The notes under the pieces: generated by a model
The model's database searches: none
What the model was told of the DNA's origin: nothing
The model's input: the letters and a program-made list of their open reading frames with translations, nothing else
In this document: one piece after another, positions 4,399 to 64,000 of the stretch
How the letters are laid out: each line of letters opens with the position of its first letter
How positions within the stretch are numbered: the stretch's first letter is position 1
Translations under genes and position numbers: made by a program
DNA from: Escherichia phage p000v
Direction: 5' to 3' (one strand)
Sequence record: NC_055781.1
Length of the DNA stretch: 64,000 nucleotides

Positions 4399-4453
4399 TA
4401 GTTTATGATGGTAGGAAGAAGTGTTATCTTCCTACCAATTTGAGGAGAATATC

Positions 4454-4693
4454 ATGGAACAAGAATTAGACATTATTACATCGAAAAAACGTCTTGAAGT
4501 TGTAGTGAACGGCTCAACTATTAAGTTTGTATATGACACTTTAACTGATGCTATTACCGTTAGTTGTGGCGGAAAGGCTTTTAGTCTAGATTCTACTGAA
4601 AACAAATACCCGTTCTATAAAGGTATCTTTGATATGGGTGTTGATATCAGTGTTCGTCAAGCAAACTATTTACATTATCTTATCACGAAATAA
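4454..4693 (+). CDS. hypothetical protein
   Basis: ATG with GAGGAGAATATC RBS; 79 aa. Confidence 0.4.
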   Translation: MEQELDIITSKKRLEVVVNGSTIKFVYDTLTDAITVSCGGKAFSLDSTENKYPFYKGIFDMGVDISVRQANYLHYLITK

Positions 4694-4696
4694 CGC

Positions 4697-4728
4697 ACAA
4701 ACTCTTGAGAGCAGAGTATAATGCTCTC
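4697..4728 (+). promoter_or_regulatory. promoter module, copy 1: AAACTCTTGAGAGCAGAG-TATAAT-GCTCTC (repeated at ~49641)
   Basis: perfect TATAAT lying in the loop of the 6-bp inverted repeat GAGAGC/GCTCTC; an identical ~30-nt sequence recurs upstream of ndd. Confidence 0.45.
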
Positions 4729-4759
4729 GTTGGATAATAAAATAACAGAGGAAAATAAT

Positions 4760-5092
4760 ATGTCTACTAAAATCAAAAACGTAGTGAACTCTTTCGCTTT
4801 CGATAAAGTTGTTAGTCTTCTAGAAAAAGGTGGTATTGTTACTCCTCAAGTTCTTGACGCGTGGGAATTCCGTCTTTATGAAATCATGCAAAAACACGAC
4901 CAGAAAATTGGACGTAATTCTATTCGTGAAATTCTAGTACAATATATTCTTTCTGAATTTGACGTTGCCGCATTTGGTGTTGAATCTAAAGCTTATCAGA
5001 AACATGAAATCTCTGAAAAAACTATCCGTCGTATGAAAAATCAACGTAAGAAAAAATTCGCTGACTTGAAAATTGTTAAGGCGGTAAAATGA
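4760..5092 (+). CDS. hypothetical protein
   Basis: ATG with AGGAAAATAAT RBS; 110 aa. Confidence 0.4.
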   Translation: MSTKIKNVVNSFAFDKVVSLLEKGGIVTPQVLDAWEFRLYEIMQKHDQKIGRNSIREILVQYILSEFDVAAFGVESKAYQKHEISEKTIRRMKNQRKKKFADLKIVKAVK

Positions 5093-5316
5093 GCATACTA
5101 ACAGAAACTTTGATTAATGATCTGCGTCTAGCTGGTTACGAAGTTGGTACAAATAGTCTAGGTCTTCCTCAGATCGAAGGTCCTGGATTTATTCTAGAAT
5201 ACGAATTCAAACAATGGTGGTTATATGCTACGGTTGACGATGCGTTGAATATTGATTTCGTTGACCAATTTGATTCATTGGATGCTGCCTTATTTGCAGC
5301 AAAGGAACTAGAATGA
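5089..5316 (+). CDS. hypothetical protein
   Basis: 75 aa, ATGA overlap with upstream gene. Confidence 0.4.
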   Translation: MSILTETLINDLRLAGYEVGTNSLGLPQIEGPGFILEYEFKQWWLYATVDDALNIDFVDQFDSLDAALFAAKELE

Positions 5317-5582
5317 AATTAACTCGAATCAGTATAACTGAAGAAAAGCTGGGCGAATTTTACGTCGACAACTTTATGAAAGTTACGTATTTTCCATTTG
5401 TTAAAGGTGTCGGTTTTTGGGAAACTCATGTATCTCAATTAAACGAAGGCGACTATAACGAAACACATGAGAACTTTTTAGATTTTCTTTATGGAGCTGG
5501 ATTAACCGAGCTTTATATTGATATACATGAGTTCAAACGTTTAATGGAAAAAGTATTCCAGGCGTATTGTTTGCTCCGATAG
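5313..5582 (+). CDS. hypothetical protein
   Basis: 89 aa, ATGA overlap with upstream gene. Confidence 0.4.
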   Translation: MKLTRISITEEKLGEFYVDNFMKVTYFPFVKGVGFWETHVSQLNEGDYNETHENFLDFLYGAGLTELYIDIHEFKRLMEKVFQAYCLLR

Positions 5583-13764: not shown

Positions 13765-13783
13765 TGGGACTTCGGTCCCATTT
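13765..13783 (+). terminator. intrinsic terminator (TGGGAC-ttcg-GTCCCA then TTT)
   Basis: 6-bp stem with UUCG tetraloop after the regA stop. Confidence 0.55.
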
Positions 13784-26207: not shown

Positions 26208-26226
26208 GGAGACTTCGGTCTCCTTT
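26208..26226 (+). terminator. intrinsic terminator (GGAGAC-ttcg-GTCTCC then TTT)
   Basis: UUCG tetraloop hairpin right after the gene 41 stop. Confidence 0.55.
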
Positions 26227-26664: not shown

Positions 26665-26715
26665 GTTTACTTCTCCAGTAGTTATGTTATTATAGATCTA
26701 TCAACTACTGGAGAA
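26665..26715 (+). promoter_or_regulatory. early promoter (GTTTAC -17- TATTAT) embedded in a 13-bp perfect inverted repeat
   Basis: TTCTCCAGTAGTT (26671-26683) / AACTACTGGAGAA (26703-26715); -10 in the loop; the right arm contains the GGAGAA RBS of the next gene. Confidence 0.5.
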
Positions 26716-26719
26716 CAAA

Positions 26720-27037
26720 ATGAAAACCATCGATTGTAAAGCAGAATTTAAGATTTTTTATCACGGTTCAAGTAGTTCAGCTAACATCGAAAACATGCTT
26801 TGTCCTCCTGAAGAAACAGGAGTTCTGTCTGAAACCGGACGTAAGAAAAACTTGAATCGTGTATTCTTTACTGAAGATATCGGTTTAGCAAAGATTTACG
26901 CAGGACGAGCAGCACGCTCTTATGGAGGTGAACCACGTCTCTATCGAGTAATTTCTCCGGTAGATGTAGTTCAAATGAATGATACTAAAGGTGCTACAGT
27001 TTATCATGCTGAATGGGCATTTTGCGAGGAAATATGA
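26720..27037 (+). CDS. hypothetical protein
   Basis: 105-aa ORF with RBS; no recognisable family. Confidence 0.4.
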   Translation: MKTIDCKAEFKIFYHGSSSSANIENMLCPPEETGVLSETGRKKNLNRVFFTEDIGLAKIYAGRAARSYGGEPRLYRVISPVDVVQMNDTKGATVYHAEWAFCEEI

Positions 27038-27976: not shown

Positions 27977-28011
27977 GTTTACATTATAGATGGACTATAG
28001 TATAGTAGTCC
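27977..28011 (+). promoter_or_regulatory. T4-type early promoter (GTTTAC -18- TATAGT) with inverted repeat GGACTA/TAGTCC around the -10
   Basis: upstream of ORF 28036. Confidence 0.45.
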
Positions 28012-28035
28012 TATCAAATCAACTAAGGAGTTAAA

Positions 28036-38846: not shown

Positions 38847-38875
38847 GTTTACTTCTCCTCTGGTTTTGATATTAT
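38847..38875 (+). promoter_or_regulatory. early promoter (GTTTAC -17- TATTAT)
   Basis: upstream of ORF 38902. Confidence 0.45.
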
Positions 38876-38901
38876 AACCATATCAACCAGAGGAGAATAA
38901 T

Positions 38902-39426
38902 ATGTTAGTTTACCGCGTAGAACGTAGTTTTTGTACTCAACGTGAATCATTACCAGGAGTTGCTATCGAAGACGGTAAAGCCGTCAGAATTTGGGAAACC
39001 TCCTGGAATAAAGAACCTCGTTCGCCATACGGTTGGTCGGGCACCGACAACTCTGAAGAAACATGGGAGTTCCTTGATAAGCATGGAATACTCTCAGGTA
39101 ACTTCTACCATCACGGCGACAACTATAATGTACCTAATCGTCCTACAGTAAATGAAGACAAACTCCTTGAACAAAATATCTTAAGATACTATAGAATTGA
39201 GCACACATTTGAATTGAACGAAGATTGGGCTCAAGGGTTCTATTTTGGATTTGAAAGCGTTGACGCGGTTTATGCATGGTTTGATGACCAGGTGGATGTT
39301 GAACTCTTGAAAGCTAAAGGATACTACATCGCGGTCTATGAAGCACCTGATTTCATCCTCGGAAGTTGTCAATTAATGTTTAGACGTTCATTGGCAGAAC
39401 AAGTTGATTTTATTTTGCTAAAATGA
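38902..39426 (+). CDS. hypothetical protein
   Basis: 174-aa ORF with GAGGAGAATAAT RBS. Confidence 0.45.
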   Translation: MLVYRVERSFCTQRESLPGVAIEDGKAVRIWETSWNKEPRSPYGWSGTDNSEETWEFLDKHGILSGNFYHHGDNYNVPNRPTVNEDKLLEQNILRYYRIEHTFELNEDWAQGFYFGFESVDAVYAWFDDQVDVELLKAKGYYIAVYEAPDFILGSCQLMFRRSLAEQVDFILLK

Positions 39427-40746: not shown

Positions 40747-40791
40747 CTTTAGATTTCGGATGATAGAATACCTTCATAACGAGGAGACAAC

Positions 40792-42612
40792 ATGATTAAA
40801 AATGAAATTAAGGTATTGTCGGATGTAGAACATATTAAGAAACGTAGTGGCATGTATATTGGTTCTTCTGCTAAAGAAGCCCACGAGCGTTTTTTGTTTG
40901 GTAAATATCAACAAGTTGAATATGTTCCTGGTCTGGTTAAATTAATCGATGAGATTATTGACAACTCGGTTGATGAAGCTATTCGTACATCATTTAAGTT
41001 TGCAAATAAAATTGATGTGCAAATTAAAAATAATCAAGTTTCGGTGGAAGATAACGGACGTGGTATTCCTCAAGGTTTAGTTACCGACCAAACAGGTGAA
41101 CAAATTCCTGGGCCTGTAGCAGCCTGGACTATTCCAAAGGCCGGTGGTAACTTTGGTGATGACTCTGAACGTAAGACTGGTGGTATGAACGGCGTCGGGA
41201 GTAGTTTAACTAATATCTTCTCTACGTTGTTTACAGGCATCACGTCAGATGGCGAAAATGAAATCACTGTTAACTGTTCAAACGGAATGGAAAACAAATC
41301 ATGGTCTTCTAAGAAATCTAAAGGTAAAGGCACTAAAGTAATCTTCACTCCTGATTTCACTTCATTTGAAGAGCATAATTTATCTCAAATTTATTTAGAT
41401 ATTACTTTAGACCGACTTCAAACATTGGCAGTCGTTTATCCTGATATCAAGTTCACATTTAATGGTAAAAAGGTCGATGGTAATTTTAAACGATTTGCTA
41501 AACAATTTGGTGAAGATAACATCATTCAAGAAAATGATAAAGTCTCTATAGCATTCACAACATCACCAGATGGCTTCCGTCATTTAACTTATGTGAATAA
41601 CATCCATACTAAAAATGGTGGACATCATGTTGAATGTGTAATGGACGATATCTGCGAACATCTTTTGCCGGGTATTAAAAAGAAATATAAGGGTATTGAA
41701 GTCACTAAAGCTCGTGTTAAAGAATGTCTCACAATGTTGATGTTTATTAGAGACATGAGCAACATGCGTTTTGATTCTCAGACTAAAGAACGTTTAACGT
41801 CAACGTACGGTGATATTCGTAATCATATCCAATTAGATGCTAAGAAAATTGCTCAGGCACTTCTTAAAAATGAAGCCTTGATTATGCCTATTGTTGAAGC
41901 AGCATTAGCTCGTAAATTGGCGGCAGAAAAGGCTGCAGAAACTAAAGCAGCTAAAAAGGCAACTAAAGCTAAGGTTCATAAGCATATTAAAGCTAACCAA
42001 TGTGGTAAAGATGCAGATACGACATTGTTTTTAACAGAAGGTGATTCGGCAATTGGATATCTCATTGATGTTCGTGACCGTGAACTACATGGTGGATTCC
42101 CATTACGTGGTAAGGTGATGAATAGCTGGGGTATGTCATATGCTGATATGATGAAGAACAAAGAGCTCTTTGATATCTGTGCTATCACGGGTCTTATTCT
42201 TGGTGAAAAAGCAGAGAATACGAACTATCGTAATATTGCAATTATGACCGATGCCGATCATGACGGCCTTGGAAGTATTTATCCTGCTTTGCTTGCTTTC
42301 TTTAGTAATTGGCCTGAATTGTTTGAACAAGGACGTATTCGCTTTGTTAAAACACCTGTAATTATTGCACAAATTGGCAAAACTCAAAAATGGTTTTATA
42401 CTGTAGCTGAGTATGAAGAAGTTAAAGATACACTGCCTAAGCATAGTATTCGATACATCAAGGGATTGGGCTCACTTCAGCGGGATGAATATAAAGAAAT
42501 GATTCAAAACCCTGTGTACGACGTAGTTAAACTTCCTGAAAATTGGAAAGAACTATTTGAAATGCTCATGGGTAACGACCCTGAACTCCGTAAAGATTGG
42601 ATGCTAGGATAA
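40792..42612 (+). CDS. 39: DNA topoisomerase II large subunit gp39 (GyrB-like), uninterrupted
   Basis: 606 aa; GHKL ATPase region (IDEIIDNSVDEA) and TOPRIM (LFLTEGDSA, IMTDADHDG); no split into 39 and 60. Confidence 0.9.
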   Translation: MIKNEIKVLSDVEHIKKRSGMYIGSSAKEAHERFLFGKYQQVEYVPGLVKLIDEIIDNSVDEAIRTSFKFANKIDVQIKNNQVSVEDNGRGIPQGLVTDQTGEQIPGPVAAWTIPKAGGNFGDDSERKTGGMNGVGSSLTNIFSTLFTGITSDGENEITVNCSNGMENKSWSSKKSKGKGTKVIFTPDFTSFEEHNLSQIYLDITLDRLQTLAVVYPDIKFTFNGKKVDGNFKRFAKQFGEDNIIQENDKVSIAFTTSPDGFRHLTYVNNIHTKNGGHHVECVMDDICEHLLPGIKKKYKGIEVTKARVKECLTMLMFIRDMSNMRFDSQTKERLTSTYGDIRNHIQLDAKKIAQALLKNEALIMPIVEAALARKLAAEKAAETKAAKKATKAKVHKHIKANQCGKDADTTLFLTEGDSAIGYLIDVRDRELHGGFPLRGKVMNSWGMSYADMMKNKELFDICAITGLILGEKAENTNYRNIAIMTDADHDGLGSIYPALLAFFSNWPELFEQGRIRFVKTPVIIAQIGKTQKWFYTVAEYEEVKDTLPKHSIRYIKGLGSLQRDEYKEMIQNPVYDVVKLPENWKELFEMLMGNDPELRKDWMLG

Positions 42613-48033: not shown

Positions 48034-48056
48034 GGGGACTTCGGTCCCCTTTTTTT
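48034..48056 (+). terminator. intrinsic terminator (GGGGAC-ttcg-GTCCCC then TTTTTTT)
   Basis: strong UUCG hairpin and T-run after rIIB. Confidence 0.65.
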
Positions 48057-48863: not shown

Positions 48864-48900
48864 GTTTACAACTAAGTAGGACTATGATATAGTAGTCCTA
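48864..48900 (+). promoter_or_regulatory. early promoter (GTTTAC -18- TATAGT) with inverted repeat TAGGACTA/TAGTCCTA
   Basis: upstream of ORF 48920. Confidence 0.45.
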
Positions 48901-49375: not shown

Positions 49376-49415
49376 GTTTACAACACAGTAGGATTATGGT
49401 ATAGTAGTCCTACTG
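49376..49415 (+). promoter_or_regulatory. early promoter (GTTTAC -18- TATAGT) with inverted repeat CAGTAGGA/TCCTACTG
   Basis: upstream of ORF 49435. Confidence 0.45.
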
Positions 49416-49434
49416 AAACATGAGGAATACAAAA

Positions 49435-49635
49435 ATGGCTAAGCTTTTTAAAGATGTTGAAATTGGTGAAAAATTCGTCCTGAATAATGGACAGCAGCTT
49501 ATTCGTGTAGCTTCTATAGCCGGACAAACTCATAACTGTATCGCCCCAACGTGTTGGACTCGATTCTTTATTGAAGATGACACTGAATGTTTAACTGTTG
49601 AAGAGCTTTTTGAACGTTCTGATATAGCCGAATAA
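49435..49635 (+). CDS. hypothetical protein
   Basis: 66 aa from ATG after GAGGAATACAAAA RBS. Confidence 0.4.
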   Translation: MAKLFKDVEIGEKFVLNNGQQLIRVASIAGQTHNCIAPTCWTRFFIEDDTECLTVEELFERSDIAE

Positions 49636-49637
49636 AA

Positions 49638-49674
49638 TTGTACAAACTCTTGAGAGCAGAGTATAATGCTCTCA
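49638..49674 (+). promoter_or_regulatory. promoter module, copy 2: TTGTAC -18- TATAAT inside GAGAGC/GCTCTC inverted repeat
   Basis: about 30 nt identical to 4697..4728; upstream of ndd. Confidence 0.45.
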
Positions 49675-49711
49675 TGGATTACAAAAACATTAATCAATTG
49701 AGGAAATTAGC

Positions 49712-50158
49712 ATGTCCAAATATTTAACTCGTAAAGACCTTCTGGCAGTTGGTGGTGAAGTTGTTGCAGTAGTTCGTAATGGCGAATACGGTTCTGAAGT
49801 TTCTAAAGAGTTTCGTTCTCGTGAAGGTTTTTACTTCTTCGTTAAAGGTTCATCTGACTGGCGACAAGTAGCAGCACGATTCTTTGTAGGACGTCAACGT
49901 TCTAAACAAGGGTTAGATGCAATTCTTTCTCACATTCGTCAAGGCCGTTCACAACTCGCCCGTACTATGGGCACTAACAATATTGAATATGATGTAATCT
50001 TTGTTTCAGCTAAGAACATGAAACCTCTGACTACTGGTTACGGTAAAGGACAATTGGCTCTAGCGTTCACTCGCAACCATACATCAGAATATCAAACACT
50101 CACTGAAATGAACCGTCTTCTGGCCGATAATTTCAAATTCATTCTGCAGAGTTACTAA
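49712..50158 (+). CDS. ndd: nucleoid disruption protein Ndd
   Basis: 148 aa; region [29 protein letters not shown] and C-terminal [10 protein letters not shown] match T4 Ndd as recalled. Confidence 0.65.
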
Positions 50159-56035: not shown

Positions 56036-59000
56036 TTATGCTAAACGAACGATATAGTTAAAAGCAACGTTTTTAACTGTGTTTTCTGTATTTCCTGTGG
56101 CATTTACAGTTATTGTATGTCCATGGGAACCAATTGCAACAGTATGAGAATGAGCACCAATACCTACCGAATGGGTATGAGCACCAATACCCACAGTATG
56201 AGCATGGTTACCCGTAGCGCTAGTAGTTCCAGACCAACTATGGGTGTGGGCACCATCTGAAGAAGTTTTGGCCATATTCGACGATGCAGTGGCACCACTC
56301 ACGGTTGCAGTGAATTTAGCGTTACCGTTTGGACCCGCACTATTGTATCCATCATAGAATACGCTAGTGGGTATGCCGCCTTGTACCTGAGGACCTGAAC
56401 GCGCGTGTTGGTGCGCACCAGCGGAACTAGTATTACCACTCACTGTATGGTTATGGTTACCAGTGGTATTACTGGTCTTAGTACCATAATCAAAGCTTGA
56501 AGTCGTTTTGCTTCCGTAATCAAAACTAGAAGTGGTCTTAGTACCCAAATCTGTGCTTGATGCACTTGCACTATGGCTATGTGACTTAACACCATCTGCT
56601 TCTGTACTTAATACTGCACGTCCGGATGGTTTACCTTTAATCGTTTGCCCACGCATATCAGGCAGAGAGCCGGAAGGATACACTGCAGCTAACTTAGGAT
56701 ACAAGTCGACATCAAATGTTTGACCTTCCATTATGGCATAACCTTCAGGAGGTGTATCAGTAGGCCAAGGAATCGGAGCGCCAATTGGATAACTTGAGAC
56801 GATATCCGTCTTAAGGTTATTTATTGTGGTGTTCAAGTTGGCAAAGTTACCAGAACCACCTGTGATGTTACCATCAGTACCTAATTGAGCATTACCGACT
56901 TTAAGAGGTTTAGCTATATCAACCGTATCAGAGTTTAATGCAATACCATGGGAGTAGGTGTAACTGTGCATACGAACGATGTTACCACCATCGCCAATAC
57001 CTAAATACCATTTCGGAACATCTGCTTTACGTCCTTGGATGAAGTTAGAATATTCTTGTGTTGGGGCATTTATTCTAATAGCATCGGAGGCAGTATTAAC
57101 TGTAATACGTTGCCCTGATGTTGTTCCACTAGTTTCTACTTTAAATCTTCCACCACCGATATCAACATCATGATCCATGCTGACTTTACCAGTACTTAAT
57201 GTAATATAGAACGGACGTAAATTAGAAATACCACCTGATTCACCAACATTCTGTGGAGTTGGAATAATATAAAGCTTATCTTCAGAACGACGGAAAATAG
57301 CCCCGTATTCAGCATCGTAAATACGGAAAGCATCAGCAGTCCCGCCAATTTTAACCTGTCCGGTAATTGAGGCACCACCTTGAACAAACAATCCATTATT
57401 CATTGTAACGTTGCCAACTAGAGTGCTTAATCCGTTAACTCTAAGACTTCCGTCGGTTATTAAGCTTCCTCTAGCATTAACCTGTCCATTGAACTGAGTT
57501 ACAACAGGGCCTGTAGTTTCAGAACCGGTCGGAGCTACGCGTTGAGAATAGAAATAATAACCTTGGCCATCAGAAACCTCAAATACGGTTTCTCGAGCTT
57601 TATCACCAGTAGCATTAAATGAGTTACCCCATGCTTTAACTGTAACAGGGCTTTTGTTTTGACCTGCGCGAGTACCACTGTTCCAGTATATACTTCTAGT
57701 ACCATCTGCAGCCGTCGGAGCGTTAAACTGGAATCCCTGATTATCAGGTCCATCAATAATTATGCCTTTATTAAGACGAAAAGCTAATGTAGAATTAATA
57801 CTTCCAGTTGCGGCATTAAAGCTAATACTTTCACCGCCGGTGGTTAACTTCAATATACCTGGGTTAACTTCCATGCCTTCTTGAGTATTAATATTAGTTT
57901 TGCCTTTACCACGGAAATAGTGGTTCATTTTTCCGCCAGAATTATATCCAATATGGGTTTGACCGTCTCCAGCAGTGTTTTCATCAGCTTGTGTTTGAAC
58001 TGATAAAAATGCAACATTCGTTCCAGGCATAATCCATGTAGTGCCTTGGTCTTCTGAACGACCAAATATACCTTTACGAGTACTACGGAAACTATCAGGA
58101 GTAATAGAAGCAACAGAATTCCAATTACCTACTAAATCATAAACACCCTGCTTAATGTATTTTAAACCAGTGGCAGCATCACCCAAAGCAATATATCTTT
58201 CTCCCATTGGAGTAGGAGAGCCGTAGTTATTGGTATTTTCATCAGTGGTAATTGTGCCAATAGCAAGTGAACGACGTAATACCATTGCGCCATCATTACG
58301 AAGACCCATTAATTTAGTAGTAAGTGTATTTCCGGTCCACCAAGAAATTTCATCATTCTTACCAGTTTGAGCTGAAGCGATTTCATGGTAAATAGTTCCA
58401 CCTGATTTAGCTCGAACTTTACGAAGATAGTTTATACCATTTTCTTCACCTGTTCCAGGATAAACATACTGAACTAATGATTGCGAATCATATTGTCCAA
58501 ATGCTTTTGTATCTAAAATAATATTTTTAGTATTAATCTGAGGCGAAGTAATATTTCCGAGAGCTGCAATATTTCCAGATGTAGTTATACTACCTCCTGA
58601 TACTGCTAAACCTCCACCATCAACAGTAAATCCACCGTCACGGTGAAACGTCCAATATTTCGAATAACCAGATTCATTCATAAAATGAATTTTAAAACTT
58701 CCTTCGTTTACTAACGTACCAACAGAAAAAGTTCCATCTTTATAGCGTTGTTTAATCAGCGGATGATATTCTGAAACAGAAGTAGTTGAACTTAAATCTG
58801 TAAAGATAGGAGCTTTATTTAGATGTTGATTTGCCCAAGCGCCATTTCCAGCAGTTTTTGGCAAGAATTCAATATACTTTCCTGCATAAACAAACTGGTT
58901 TCCATTAAGATTATATGTGCCGTTTTGTAAATAATCACCATTTTGAGTTACATTACCGTTAATATCCCCGCCCTTAGCAAAGCCTAGGCTAATAATATTA

Positions 59001-61006: not shown

Positions 61007-64000
61007 TTATTCAATCCACTCGAATTTAACAGATTTATTCACAGGGTCTGGAATAATGCGGACATTACCAATCCTTAAGAAATCCCTTATTGTCAAGTTT
61101 CCGATTGTTGCATTATCAGAAGGTAAAGCACCAATATCAGAAGGTTGAGGAGGGTTTCCGCCATCAAATACCTGAACAAAACTTGACCAAGAATTTTTAG
61201 TTTTCTGCCATGTACGAGTCCAACGGGTTGTACGTGCTTCTGGAGTTGTTGGATAAGTAATCCAATCTTGGTAAAGAGAATCAAGCGTATTACCAAACTG
61301 AGTCAATGTACCAGGAGATTTAACTTCTTCGCCACGTTCTAAGTATGGAAGCCCAGTCACTTCATTAGTTTTTTCAACCATTTTAAAATAACCCGGGAAC
61401 TGGTTATAAGTGGCTGAATCGTTAATATCGATTGACCAGAATCCTACAGTATCAGATGTCGGTGCGCGAGTGTATAAATCAGCAGTTTTAGAGCCCTGAG
61501 AACGAATTCTCGAGTTAACAGTTAAACCACCTGAATTTATAGTAGCACCTTTGGCAATGATTAAGCTTTCACCAATCGTTACTTGGCCAGATGCATTATT
61601 AATAGCTAAAGGACGTAATCCATTAAATCCGCCGGTCTGATCGCCTGATGCAGTGAGCATAAAATAGGTATTAACAGCGTCATTACGAATAAAGAATCCG
61701 TAATCACCACTAATTGCTCTGAAAGCATTTGCAGACTTACTAATGAATTCACCATTGGCTGTAACTGAACTATTAAACGTTGAGACACCTGTAACGTTCA
61801 GAACGCCACGAACGCTAGCGTTGACTGATTGCATCGTACCTGAAATATTGAACAGCACATTATTCGACGTATCTCTTTGAGAATAGAAATGAGAGCCGGT
61901 AGCATCAGAGAATTCTATAATCGTTGCACGAGTTACATCAGAACCTCCGCTGTACTTATTACCCCATACACGAACATACAATGCAGAATCAGCATTACTA
62001 CCAGAAGCAGGACCTTTCTCAAATGTAAATCGAGAAGAAGTCGTTCCAGTATTAGAAATAGTCAGTGTACTATTAGCAGATACTGAACCACCAAACGTAG
62101 CAGTACTAGTTGATACAAGAGGGGCACTCAGATTCGTTTGTTGGGTTAAGGTTAGTGAACCATTAACCGTCTGTGCAATGTCCCTACGAATGAACTGAGA
62201 TGAATCTAGGCCATCTAATAAATTACTATCTACGGCTTTAGCTTTCAATGGCAAATAGTTAGCAAGTACACGGTTTAATTCATATGGTGATACTGCATAG
62301 CTATTTTTTTCGTATGATTCTAAAGGTTGTGTTGAACCAACTGTATCATTACCAACAAATGTAATAGAACCGGACGAAGTTTTAACGAATCCGCGAATTG
62401 CTGTAGTAGCAGCCCATGTTGGTTCATTCTGGACAATCCATTTTAAATTCTTAGGAGATACAGCAGTATTAGCAGAAGTTCCTGTTACAGTTTCAGCCTG
62501 AGTAGCAACCTTAATTACGCCTTCAGACGTTTCAGTGGACTTAGTCCCTAAAAGCTTTTTAGGAGTAATAAGAACATCATCTAAAGTTCCTGCATTAGAT
62601 TCTGCCTGGGTCGCTACGCGGAGTGTACCACGTTGTGTTTCATTTGCTTTAGAAATATCAAGAGTATAATGGTTCCACAAGGTTCCTTCTTCAATAAGTC
62701 CGGAATCAGAATTAACACTGGTACGGTCAGAAGAATCAAAATGAGTTTTAATTTTCAGTGGAGTCGAGATACGAGTATCATCAGTTCCAGTATCAAATTC
62801 AACTTGCGTAGCAAGTTCGGCTATGCCGGATAATCCTTCCGTAGCTTTCCTATCATTTAACGTCTTAGGCGTTACTGCACGTGTATAATCAGTCCCAGCA
62901 TTAGTTTCTGCTTGCGTAGCAATTTCAATTAAACCAATACGTCCATCAGTAGAAGTTTTCTTATGTAGTGTTTCAGGAGTTACTACAGCGTGAGAATAAC
63001 CTGCTTGTGATTGACCAGCAATTACTTCACTATCAACAGCTAAAATTACTGCACCTTGTTGAGCATAAGTTGCTTTATATTGGTCAAGGGCTTTAGGAGA
63101 AATAGTTAAATTATTTACGGTTTTATTATAAACGTTAGTGCCTGCAGCCCCACGAGTTTCAGCAGGAGTAGCAGAAGTAGTTGATACATATTTAACTATA
63201 CCAGACAGTGTTTCAGAACCCTGACGTGCCTGTAATTTCTTAGGTGTAATAATCGTTGTGTCATCAAGACCAGCATCGGTTTCAACCTGAGTAGCAATTT
63301 CAGCAAGACCACGACGAGTTTCAGTTGCTGTACGCTCATTTAGTTTTTTAGGCGTAACAATAGTATCATCCACAAATGTTGCAGTGGAATTCTGGTTAAC
63401 TTGTGCTGTTGTAGCAATTTTAGCGATACCACGTCGAGCTTCAGTTGCTGTACGATTTGCCAATGTTTCAGGAGTAATAGCAACTTCTTTAGCCGGAGAA
63501 TTTTCAAAATCAACATTTGCCTGTGCCTGAGTTGCAAGAGCAATAACACCTACACGAGCTCTAGTTGTATCGGTTCCAGCATCGACACGTTCTACAGTTG
63601 GGACATTCTGTTGAACAACCCAATAACGTGTACCAGCAACGGTGTCTTCGATATACGCTAATTCTAATACAGGAACATATGAAGTAGTGCCATTGAATTC
63701 CAATTCAGTAACAGAGACCCATTGAGCATCAGGTGGATATTCAGAACGTTTAGGGAACTGAAGCAATGCAACAGAAGAAGCAATTGTATCACCTTCAGCA
63801 GCTTTAATTTTTACTGTTTGGCCTTTACGCATGTAGTTCATTGAAATTTTAACAGTGTCACCACTCAAAATTCCGCTAGGCAGCGTAAGATTAATAGTTC
63901 CGGCTGTAGCGTTATTTGTGCCAAAAATAAGAACTTCTTCATTTGGACGAATATTTGAATCCGCACGGATAATACGAAGACGCGATTTCTGGTCGCCTTC
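61007..64000 (-). CDS. 34: long tail fiber proximal subunit gp34, 5' end outside window
   Basis: at least 997 codons open to the window end (ORF-track start 63868 is an internal TTG); repeated motifs TPKKL and GTLRVATQ; C-terminus matches T4 gp34 as recalled. Confidence 0.9.
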   Translation of the reverse strand, partial: EGDQKSRLRIIRADSNIRPNEEVLIFGTNNATAGTINLTLPSGILSGDTVKISMNYMRKGQTVKIKAAEGDTIASSVALLQFPKRSEYPPDAQWVSVTELEFNGTTSYVPVLELAYIEDTVAGTRYWVVQQNVPTVERVDAGTDTTRARVGVIALATQAQANVDFENSPAKEVAITPETLANRTATEARRGIAKIATTAQVNQNSTATFVDDTIVTPKKLNERTATETRRGLAEIATQVETDAGLDDTTIITPKKLQARQGSETLSGIVKYVSTTSATPAETRGAAGTNVYNKTVNNLTISPKALDQYKATYAQQGAVILAVDSEVIAGQSQAGYSHAVVTPETLHKKTSTDGRIGLIEIATQAETNAGTDYTRAVTPKTLNDRKATEGLSGIAELATQVEFDTGTDDTRISTPLKIKTHFDSSDRTSVNSDSGLIEEGTLWNHYTLDISKANETQRGTLRVATQAESNAGTLDDVLITPKKLLGTKSTETSEGVIKVATQAETVTGTSANTAVSPKNLKWIVQNEPTWAATTAIRGFVKTSSGSITFVGNDTVGSTQPLESYEKNSYAVSPYELNRVLANYLPLKAKAVDSNLLDGLDSSQFIRRDIAQTVNGSLTLTQQTNLSAPLVSTSTATFGGSVSANSTLTISNTGTTSSRFTFEKGPASGSNADSALYVRVWGNKYSGGSDVTRATIIEFSDATGSHFYSQRDTSNNVLFNISGTMQSVNASVRGVLNVTGVSTFNSSVTANGEFISKSANAFRAISGDYGFFIRNDAVNTYFMLTASGDQTGGFNGLRPLAINNASGQVTIGESLIIAKGATINSGGLTVNSRIRSQGSKTADLYTRAPTSDTVGFWSIDINDSATYNQFPGYFKMVEKTNEVTGLPYLERGEEVKSPGTLTQFGNTLDSLYQDWITYPTTPEARTTRWTRTWQKTKNSWSSFVQVFDGGNPPQPSDIGALPSDNATIGNLTIRDFLRIGNVRIIPDPVNKSVKFEWIE

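Follow-up and report, generated by a model that had tools for sequence, protein, structure and literature searches.

In the window analysed here, a stretch of 64,000 nucleotides from the genome of Escherichia phage p000v (NC_055781.1), two exactly identical stretches of 32 nt precede the gene 55.2 homolog and the gene ndd. They are probably paralogous copies of one conserved early promoter-leader cassette of the T-even phages, of the PeSL type. PeSL, promoter-early stem-loop cassettes of T4-type phages, are described in two studies (Arbiol et al., 2010, PMC2839356; Comeau et al., 2014, PMC4122927). The finding is therefore real and largely ordinary, since PeSL-type cassettes are already known from T4-like phages.

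The repeat pair and its promoters

The repeat ACAAACTCTTGAGAGCAGAGTATAATGCTCTC is present at 4697-4728 and at 49642-49673, in both cases on the + strand, which is the direction of early transcription in the window. An earlier note on this DNA had described an identical promoter-hairpin module of about 30 nt, occurring twice, 45 kb apart, upstream of ORF 4760 and of ndd. Its 30-mer is exact at 4699-4728 and 49644-49673 (both + strand), its positions were off by merely 1-4 nt, and the exact identity amounts to 32 nt with two copies only in the window. A substantial difference between the copies, which the note had allowed for, was thus not seen. No third copy of the 30-mer was found in the window with up to 3 mismatches, nor were further copies of the repeat found there by blastn-short or by a Hamming scan with up to 10 mismatches, and 100 shuffles gave a chance expectation of 0 matches for the 30-mer.

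Past the repeat, the similarity continues for about 14 nt with a 1-nt indel, the downstream continuations being GTTGGATAATAAAA versus A-TGGATTACAAAA (= ATGGATTACAAAAA). The flanks of the two copies are unrelated. A segmental duplication is ruled out, since the similarity of the two loci stops within about 46 nt. Judging by position, other repeats of the window fall among the tail-fibre genes of the - strand: diverged direct repeats of 48-67 nt with 63-79% identity at about 62.4-63.5 kb (62465-63477), and three 30-nt tandem units at 56473-56560.

The window belongs to a Mosigvirus, an RB69-like T-even phage, and shares 98% identity with SHSML-52-1, APCEc01, the LF82 series and others. Both copies are embedded in a similar arrangement, the elements of which are as follows.

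4454-4693, + strand: ORF075c homolog, the gene before copy 1 (stop codon 4691-4693)
4694-4699, + strand: -35 position of copy 1, CGCACA, degraded (3/6 versus the T-even TTTACA)
4697-4728, + strand: copy 1, exact 32-nt repeat, core of the 55.2 promoter-hairpin cassette (sequence search)
4706-4729, + strand: predicted hairpin of copy 1, 5' arm TGAGAGCA (4706-4713), loop GAGTATAA (4714-4721), 3' arm TGCTCTCG (4722-4729) (folding, covariation)
4717-4722, + strand: -10 hexamer of copy 1, TATAAT, 17 nt past the -35 position
4732-4742, + strand: RegB/S1 motif of copy 1, GGATAATAAAA, 11/11 versus GGA(G/U)RAYARAA, GGAU variant
4748-4752, + strand: Shine-Dalgarno sequence GAGGA of 55.2
4760-5092, + strand: gene 55.2 homolog (DUF7570), served by copy 1, 78% identical to T4 gp55.2
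49420-49635, + strand: ndd.1 homolog, the gene before copy 2 (stop codon 49633-49635)
49639-49667, + strand: sigma-70-type early promoter of copy 2, TGTACA (49639-49644), 17-nt spacer, TATAAT (49662-49667) (promoter scan, 10/12 matches)
49642-49673, + strand: copy 2, exact 32-nt repeat, core of the ndd promoter-hairpin cassette (sequence search)
49651-49674, + strand: predicted hairpin of copy 2, 5' arm TGAGAGCA (49651-49658), loop GAGTATAA (49659-49666), 3' arm TGCTCTCA (49667-49674) (folding, covariation)
49676-49686, + strand: RegB/S1-like motif of copy 2, GGATTACAAAA, 10/11 (position 5 is U, not a purine)
49700-49704, + strand: Shine-Dalgarno sequence GAGGA of ndd
49712-50158, + strand: ndd, nucleoid disruption protein, served by copy 2 (Pfam Phage_T4_Ndd, E = 2e-89)

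As the earlier note had stated, both modules lie upstream of ORF 4760 and ndd; both are intergenic, and a Shine-Dalgarno sequence follows shortly after each, with the start codon ATG at 4760 and 49712, respectively. The cassette starts behind the stop codon of the upstream gene with a -35 element (T)TTACA, followed by the spacer AACTCT together with the 5' arm of the hairpin, the 8-nt loop GAGTATAA and the 3' arm. After a further 1-2 nt, GGA(G/U) with an A-rich run is present, and a variable leader leads to the Shine-Dalgarno sequence and the ATG. A PeSL is expected to have a stable stem-loop within or beside an early promoter, in the gap separating one gene's stop codon from the Shine-Dalgarno sequence and ATG of the following gene, and this is found for both copies. 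The products of ndd, 55.2 and, in T4, motB presumably all act on the host DNA or nucleoid and are toxic.

The two promoters are not equally well preserved. Copy 1 was not called by the promoter scan, and the -35 of an early promoter is present in copy 2 only. In relatives, the -35 of 55.2 reads TATACA (RB69, SHSML, F2) or TTTACA (AV114, IME08, Marfa). Where an A/T-rich UP-like region would be expected, upstream of the -35, copy 2 has GCCGAATAAAAT, with 68% A+T over 25 nt; the corresponding sequence of copy 1, ATCACGAAATAA, is devoid of the AAAAATA run of RB69, SHSML and the gp265 copy. Since the -35 is lost, the promoter of copy 1 is probably weak in this window, with the RNA elements still being kept. 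The TATAAT hexamer would occupy -12 to -7, and the predicted start is therefore the last base of the hairpin 3' arm, G4729 in copy 1 and A49674 in copy 2. The extended -10 TG is absent from both copies. A MotA-dependent middle promoter was rejected, as the sequence from -35 to -26 is (T/C)(G)(T/C)ACAAACT and contains no TGCTT, the box (a/t)(a/t)TGCTT(t/c)a being expected near -30. A T4 late promoter was rejected as well, the -10 reading GTATAATG and not TATAAATA.

For RB69, the type of the genus, early promoters Pe:165022 (ndd) and Pe:42515 (55.2) have been predicted at the same two loci (Nolan et al., 2006, PMC1524935, additional file 3). Both come solely from an HMM, which scored them at 18.2 and 8.9 (the low score being that of Pe:42515), and neither the hairpin nor the nature of the pair as one cassette was remarked upon there. 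The ndd cassette of RB69 is identical over the 32-nt repeat and the leader. Its 55.2 copy has the stem GAGAGA/TCTCTC, and the two RB69 copies are thus, unlike those of the window, not identical.

Covariation of the hairpin

The hairpin follows the formula TGAGAGCA-GAGTATAA-TGCTCTC(A/G) with a stem of 7-8 bp. Its predicted RNA energy is about -11.7 kcal/mol, with a z of about -3.2 for the 39-nt core. The loop contains the first five bases of TATAAT, and the final T opens the 3' arm.

In order to follow the stem, 27 distinct variants from 33 T4-like IMG/VR matches and phage records were aligned without gaps. Standard pairs are present in 97.2% of the stem cells versus 84% in column shuffles, none of which (0 of 500) is as high, although kinship among the variants means that these shuffle statistics overstate independence and that there are about 6-8 independent stem types. 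Changes on both sides were seen in six of the eight pairs. If the 3' partner is moved by 1-3 columns, pairing drops to 33-54%. The stem types include GAGAGCA/TGCTCTC, AGGAGCA/TGCTCCT, GAGAGA/TCTCTC and GAGGAC/GTCCTC as well as GGGACCA/TGGTCCC, GGGAGCA/TGCTCCC and GGGGTCA/TGACCCC. At the orthologous ndd locus, GAGAGCA/TGCTCTC of Mosigvirus is opposed to GGGGTCA/TGACCCC of SP18; three pairs differ, and all three are compensated.

Within the inner 7 pairs, 10 G.T or T.G cells occur on the + strand and no A.C or C.A cell. Pairing in + strand RNA is favoured because the mismatch intermediates are G.U on the + strand only. Taken together, this points to a hairpin that is selected as a + strand structure, most simply as an RNA hairpin in read-through transcripts. 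The strong selection that had been proposed as one cause of the identity is supported by the covarying stem and by the ndd copy, for which 142 phage records show an identity of 99% or more over 61 nt. No Rfam family matched either cassette with E <=1 in the two regions searched. The sole Rfam match in these regions, Atu_C9 at 4433-4630 (E 0.29, 13 bits versus a gathering score of 40), lies within the ORF075c region and is noise.

Further promoters of the window have a cassette-like geometry. At 48865-48900, 49377-49412 and 27978-28013, early promoters with GTTTACA, 17 nt and TATAGT with TGn are present. These have a stem of 6-8 bp and a loop with TATAG of 8 nt in two of the three and of 14 nt at 49377, and they form a separate stem family, (T)AGGACTA/TAGTCC(TA). 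By spacing, the promoters at 48865 and 49377 match Pe:165795 and Pe:165283 of RB69.

The cassette family, recombination at its edges and rival readings

A search of the full genome and of relatives for further copies, proposed in the earlier note, was fruitful. The complete genome of SHSML-52-1 was joined from four pieces and Hamming-scanned. It contains four family members, each located on the early strand a short way ahead of a Shine-Dalgarno sequence with its ATG, and the motif is thus far from being abundant genome-wide; more members were found in other T-even genera. The four members, of which the gp265 and gp102 loci correspond to places outside the window, are:

ndd member, early strand: exact match
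gp265 (hypothetical protein) member, early strand: exact match, perfect TTTACA -35
55.2 member, early strand: 3 mismatches, stem GAGAGA/TCTCTC
gp102 member, early strand: 6 mismatches, stem AGGAGCA/TGCTCCT

Both 3' junction variants, CA-TGGAT and CG-TTGGAT, are known from the gp265 locus. In IMG/VR, the exact 22-nt core is present at 6 loci only, and the pattern with free arms, ACAAACTCT-N8-GANTATAAT, at 44 loci. Twelve of the 44 are chance matches in unrelated contigs with non-complementary arms and served as a control. In the T4-like loci, the cassette precedes 55.2, ndd, motB and other genes.

Furthermore, the 55.2 cassette is present in IME08 (Dhakavirus) and in the Klebsiella phage Marfa, and the ndd cassette in SP18 (Gaprivervirus), there with the -35 TGTACA as in copy 2. 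IME08, Marfa, RB69 and JS09 each have their own 55.2 variant. Within Mosigvirus, the 55.2 stem is GAGAGCA in the window, F2 and AV114, GGGAGCA in JS09 and GAGAGA in RB69 and SHSML, and GAGAGCA/TGCTCTC is common to three loci. The orthologous loci of Dhakavirus and Gaprivervirus have locus-specific stems, all of which start with GGG.

In T4, a single member was found, located before motB and with the stem GGGACCA/TGGTCCC (positions 1-50000 and 163500-168903 were scanned, and BLAST gave one place in a T4 record). No cassette is present at ndd or 55.2 of T4; different hairpins occupy the same places. Upstream of ndd (2542-2601 of the fetched piece) T4 reads GGCCG...CGGCC-TT-GGAGTAGAAAA, and upstream of 55.2 (40786-40850 of the fetched piece) GGGCTTCGGCC-TTTTT-GGATAATAAAA, in each case a hairpin followed by a RegB-type motif, with a gap of 2-5 nt between the two. 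A hairpin followed by GGA(G/U) and an A-rich run may, as judged from these sequences, be a more deeply conserved unit than the promoter cassette.

The edges of the cassette coincide with breaks in homology. For many phages, the BLAST alignment to the 55.2 region opens precisely where the module does, at query position 138. In AV114, a Mosigvirus without ORF075c, the stop codon of 55.3 is joined directly to cgaTTTACAAACTC. In the window, the stop codon of 55.3 is followed by tagTTTAtgat, a 10-bp hairpin (4410-4436), a Shine-Dalgarno sequence, ORF075c and then CGCACAAACTC. Upstream of ORF075c, a second element is present:

4401-4436, + strand: promoter-like and hairpin element with the -35-like GTTTAT (4401-4406) and a 10-bp hairpin, GGTAGGAAGA (4410-4419) and TCTTCCTACC (4427-4436)

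No good -10 was found for this element; the predicted RB69 promoter Pe:42816 falls in this region, matched by position only. By sequence comparison, the ORF075c cassette sits within the former -35 of the 55.2 promoter and between two promoter-hairpin elements, which is the arrangement of the PeSL model. On the 3' side, Dhakavirus-like contigs have the same upstream flank and cassette followed by different ORFs. The ndd.1-ndd.6 region of T4 is organised differently. The indels and ORF replacements known from PeSL are therefore found here as the presence or absence of ORF075c at the 5' edge and as ORF swaps at the 3' edge. The breakpoints that could be located lie in the -35 and the Shine-Dalgarno regions, outside the stem.

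Two further observations concern neighbouring regions. In Gaprivervirus-type genomes (IMG/VR contig 2706795394; SP18, 701-1190 of the fetched piece), two family members are arranged in tandem about 410 nt apart and flank one small ORF upstream of ndd, which is the configuration required by the PeSL mini-circle model. In the window, about 185 nt just upstream of gene 55 (5393-5578) have no counterpart in SHSML-52-1; these include most of an ORF of 89 aa (5313-5582) and represent another indel in the 55.x hyperplastic region.

Of the recombination suggested earlier, the part at the cassette borders stood, borne out by the homology breaks and the ORF075c indel, and exchange among the copies is plausible. 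In its favour, a single stem is common to three Mosigvirus loci where the orthologues of sister genera have stems of their own, and the patchwork of Mosigvirus stems suggests such an exchange. The Mosigvirus identity is explained almost as well by strong constraint having preserved the ancestral state, and the stems of the outgroups do not reveal which one was ancestral.

That a small mobile element was recently duplicated or transposed to the second locus would account for 32 identical nt amid unrelated flanks, and PeSL mini-circles are reported for RB49 and phi1 (PMC2839356). It is nevertheless quite unlikely, because the loci predate the split of the genera: the cassette is at both loci in all Mosigvirus relatives examined and already at 55.2, ndd and gp102-type loci in Dhakavirus, Gaprivervirus and Marfavirus (55.2 in IME08 and Marfa, ndd in SP18). 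Neither a transposase nor terminal repeats or target duplications are present, the copies are 45 kb apart, a relative genome has two more diverged members, and a clean empty site, i.e., a relative without the cassette at one locus, was not seen among the inspected records. The recent duplication raised in the earlier note is thus not borne out. A shared regulator site, also raised there, would mean that a dimeric DNA-binding protein of the phage or the host uses the inverted repeat as its operator and thereby controls 55.2 and ndd together. In its favour, the inverted repeat overlaps the -10 hexamer, hardly any variation is seen between genera in the loop and the spacer ACAAACTCT, and the shut-off of T4 early promoters is incompletely understood (PMC3014915). 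However, the arms differ between the loci of SHSML-52-1 (GAGAGCA, AGGAGCA, GAGAGAT) and also between genera with complementarity alone being kept, and G.T intermediates on the + strand are A.C on the other strand, meaningless for the recognition of a duplex. The G.T-only asymmetry therefore speaks against a protein operator, which is disfavoured and appears very improbable, and against a symmetrical cruciform. The latter affects a role of the inverted repeat in the DNA, as cruciform or single-strand hairpin, be it as recombination hotspot or as an aid in promoter melting. A hotspot would explain the shuffling and the homogenisation; homology breaks at the cassette edges, T4-type phages recombine via short homologies, and a stem-loop serving as recombination target is a speculation of Arbiol et al. 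(PMC2839356). This role is considered unlikely, as none of the located breakpoints is in the stem (all are in the -35 and Shine-Dalgarno regions) and the 5' arm is outside the region melted by RNA polymerase.

A limited yet appreciable probability is given to the hairpin being a terminator or attenuator that shields each early gene from transcription arriving from upstream, with the copies identical as a shared terminator-promoter unit. According to Arbiol et al. (2010, PMC2839356), this was the role originally proposed for PeSL stem-loops, and one RB49 PeSL stem-loop lowered lacZ about as much as rrnB T1; T4 has, at the same position upstream of 55.2, a terminator-like UUCG hairpin followed by TTTTT. 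On the other hand, neither copy was called on the + strand by the terminator scan, and both lack a T-run after the hairpin, the tails being GTTGGATAAT and ATGGATTACA, which rules out an intrinsic (Rho-independent) terminator. The terminator-type hairpins of the window differ from the cassette: GGGACTTCGGTCCC with a UUCG tetraloop and followed by TTT is present at 13766-13783, 26209-26226 and 48035-48052, which is the usual intrinsic-terminator type of T-even phages.

The RegB-like site and known systems

Under the preferred reading, a conserved PeSL-type promoter-leader cassette, the steps of its function in this phage are derived from T4 or from the sequence. Host sigma-70 RNA polymerase would start at the last base of the 3' arm, and the cassette's own transcript would lack the hairpin. 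It would begin 2-4 nt before an exposed RegB/S1-type site, giving a burst of immediate-early mRNA that would quickly be inactivated by RegB. Read-through transcripts from upstream genes would carry the whole hairpin, which may serve in the protection of the 3' end of the upstream message or in attenuation, and pairing of GGA with the conserved CUCU might mask the RegB site in this RNA. The copies would be identical as promoter, spacer, hairpin and leader are all constrained, with homogenisation by recombination within the Mosigvirus lineage also being likely. At the cassette edges, recombination would recur and exchange the adjacent ORFs.

In every family member, GGA(G/U) and an A-rich run are located 1-2 nt past the hairpin. 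The RegB consensus has 4 matches in the window versus 0.89 expected, the identical 11-mer GGATAATAAAA is also found upstream of 55.2 in T4, and regB is annotated in the relative SHSML-52-1 at a locus outside the window. Piesiniene and colleagues are said to have described a RegB GGAU site in RB69 in 2004. The RegB consensus is GG*AGRAYARAA (PMC1702504, PMC3014915), GGAU being tolerated only in strict A-rich contexts, and the site has to be single-stranded (PMC3014915). Of 30 GGAU sites in T4, two are cut by RegB and most resist, according to Durand et al. (2006, PMC1702504); one of the two cut sites is tied there to ORF 55.2 and may be the GGAU of GGATAATAAAA.

A relative with experimental data is the motB promoter of T4. 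It is identical to the window repeat at 28 of 32 positions, and the 4 differences are all in the stem and compensatory (GGGACCA/TGGTCCC); loop, spacer and -35 are as in the cassette. Two nt after the hairpin it has GGAGUAUAAAA, where the window copies have GGAUAAUAAAA and GGAUUACAAAA. This motB leader is the minimal RegB/S1 substrate, and the motB transcript is cut there in vivo; the 5' end produced by the motB promoter is visible in primer extension (PMC1702504). The differences are that another gene is served, the window gene matched by position to motB having a different promoter class (at 38848), and that the motB site is GGAG, the preferred RegB target, whereas the window copies are GGAU, which is cut only in strict contexts.

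In the minimum-energy fold, GGA(G/U) pairs with the conserved spacer (A)CUCU in all 27 variants. This extends the helix by 5 pairs and 4-6 kcal/mol in GGAG forms and by 3 pairs and about 1-2 kcal/mol in the Mosigvirus forms. Since both sides are nearly invariant, the GGA/UCU extension is beyond a covariation test. A tentative and rather doubtful reading is that the cassette is an RNA switch in which read-through RNA would be protected from RegB and RNA from its own promoter exposed. Here, the spacer (A)CUCU might be an anti-GGAG segment, which together with the 5' arm would form an extended helix; the RegB site would be buried in it, and the upstream cistron would be left with a protective hairpin. 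Transcripts from the own promoter would lack those segments and might present the RegB site 2-4 nt from the triphosphate end.

A similar logic is known from T4 gene e (reviewed in PMC3014915), where a promoter lies within an inverted repeat, own transcripts lack the 5' arm and read-through transcripts fold, as in the cassette. In contrast, the gene e promoter is late and the ribosome-binding site is masked; the cassette has an early promoter, and the putatively masked element is a RegB-like site some 20-30 nt ahead of the Shine-Dalgarno sequence. The early promoters at 26666-26722 and 38848-38904 (GTTTACT, 16 nt, TATTAT) resemble gene e more than the cassette does; they lie inside inverted repeats of 12-13 bp, TTCTCCAGTAGTT...AACTACTGGAGAA and TTCTCCTCTGGTT...AACCAGAGGAGAA. 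Their 3' arm covers the Shine-Dalgarno sequence GGAG just before the ATG, so that read-through transcripts would mask the ribosome-binding site and own-promoter transcripts would not. At 26710-26720, a match to the RegB consensus is present (GGAGAACAAAA).

With PeSL, the window cassette shares the position between the upstream stop codon and the downstream Shine-Dalgarno sequence and ATG, the sigma-70-type early promoter, and indels and ORF swaps at its borders. In PMC2839356 and PMC4122927, a stem-loop over the -10 is a named and common subclass, which fits the window cassette, the siting in hyperplastic regions is the same, and denB-ndd is a published exchange site. The cassette differs by the missing T-run after the hairpin, which leaves terminator activity here putative, and by its stems, which are not of the G-run/C-run type of RB49. 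It adds the RegB-like GGA(G/U) with the A-rich leader and the complementary CUCU, neither of which was found in the available text of the PeSL papers.

As a discovery, the repeat pair is of little value, as it represents a PeSL-type early promoter in a known phage group with RB69 promoters predicted at both positions. A modest addition is the covariation across 27 variants from several genera, by which the stem-loop overlapping the -10 appears to be selected as a + strand structure; this was not found in the available text of the PeSL papers. The recombination at the cassette edge of 55.2, seen as the ORF075c indel, is useful for the annotation of Mosigvirus genomes and for engineering at natural junctions. 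Moreover, the cassette family is linked to the experimentally defined RegB/S1 site of T4 motB, and it becomes testable that the promoter used decides on RegB sensitivity. If the RNA switch were true, two kinds of mRNA would result for the same gene, one immediate-early and short-lived, the other delayed-early and resistant to RegB, and this would provide a mechanism for the long-noted RegB resistance of some GGAG/U sites.
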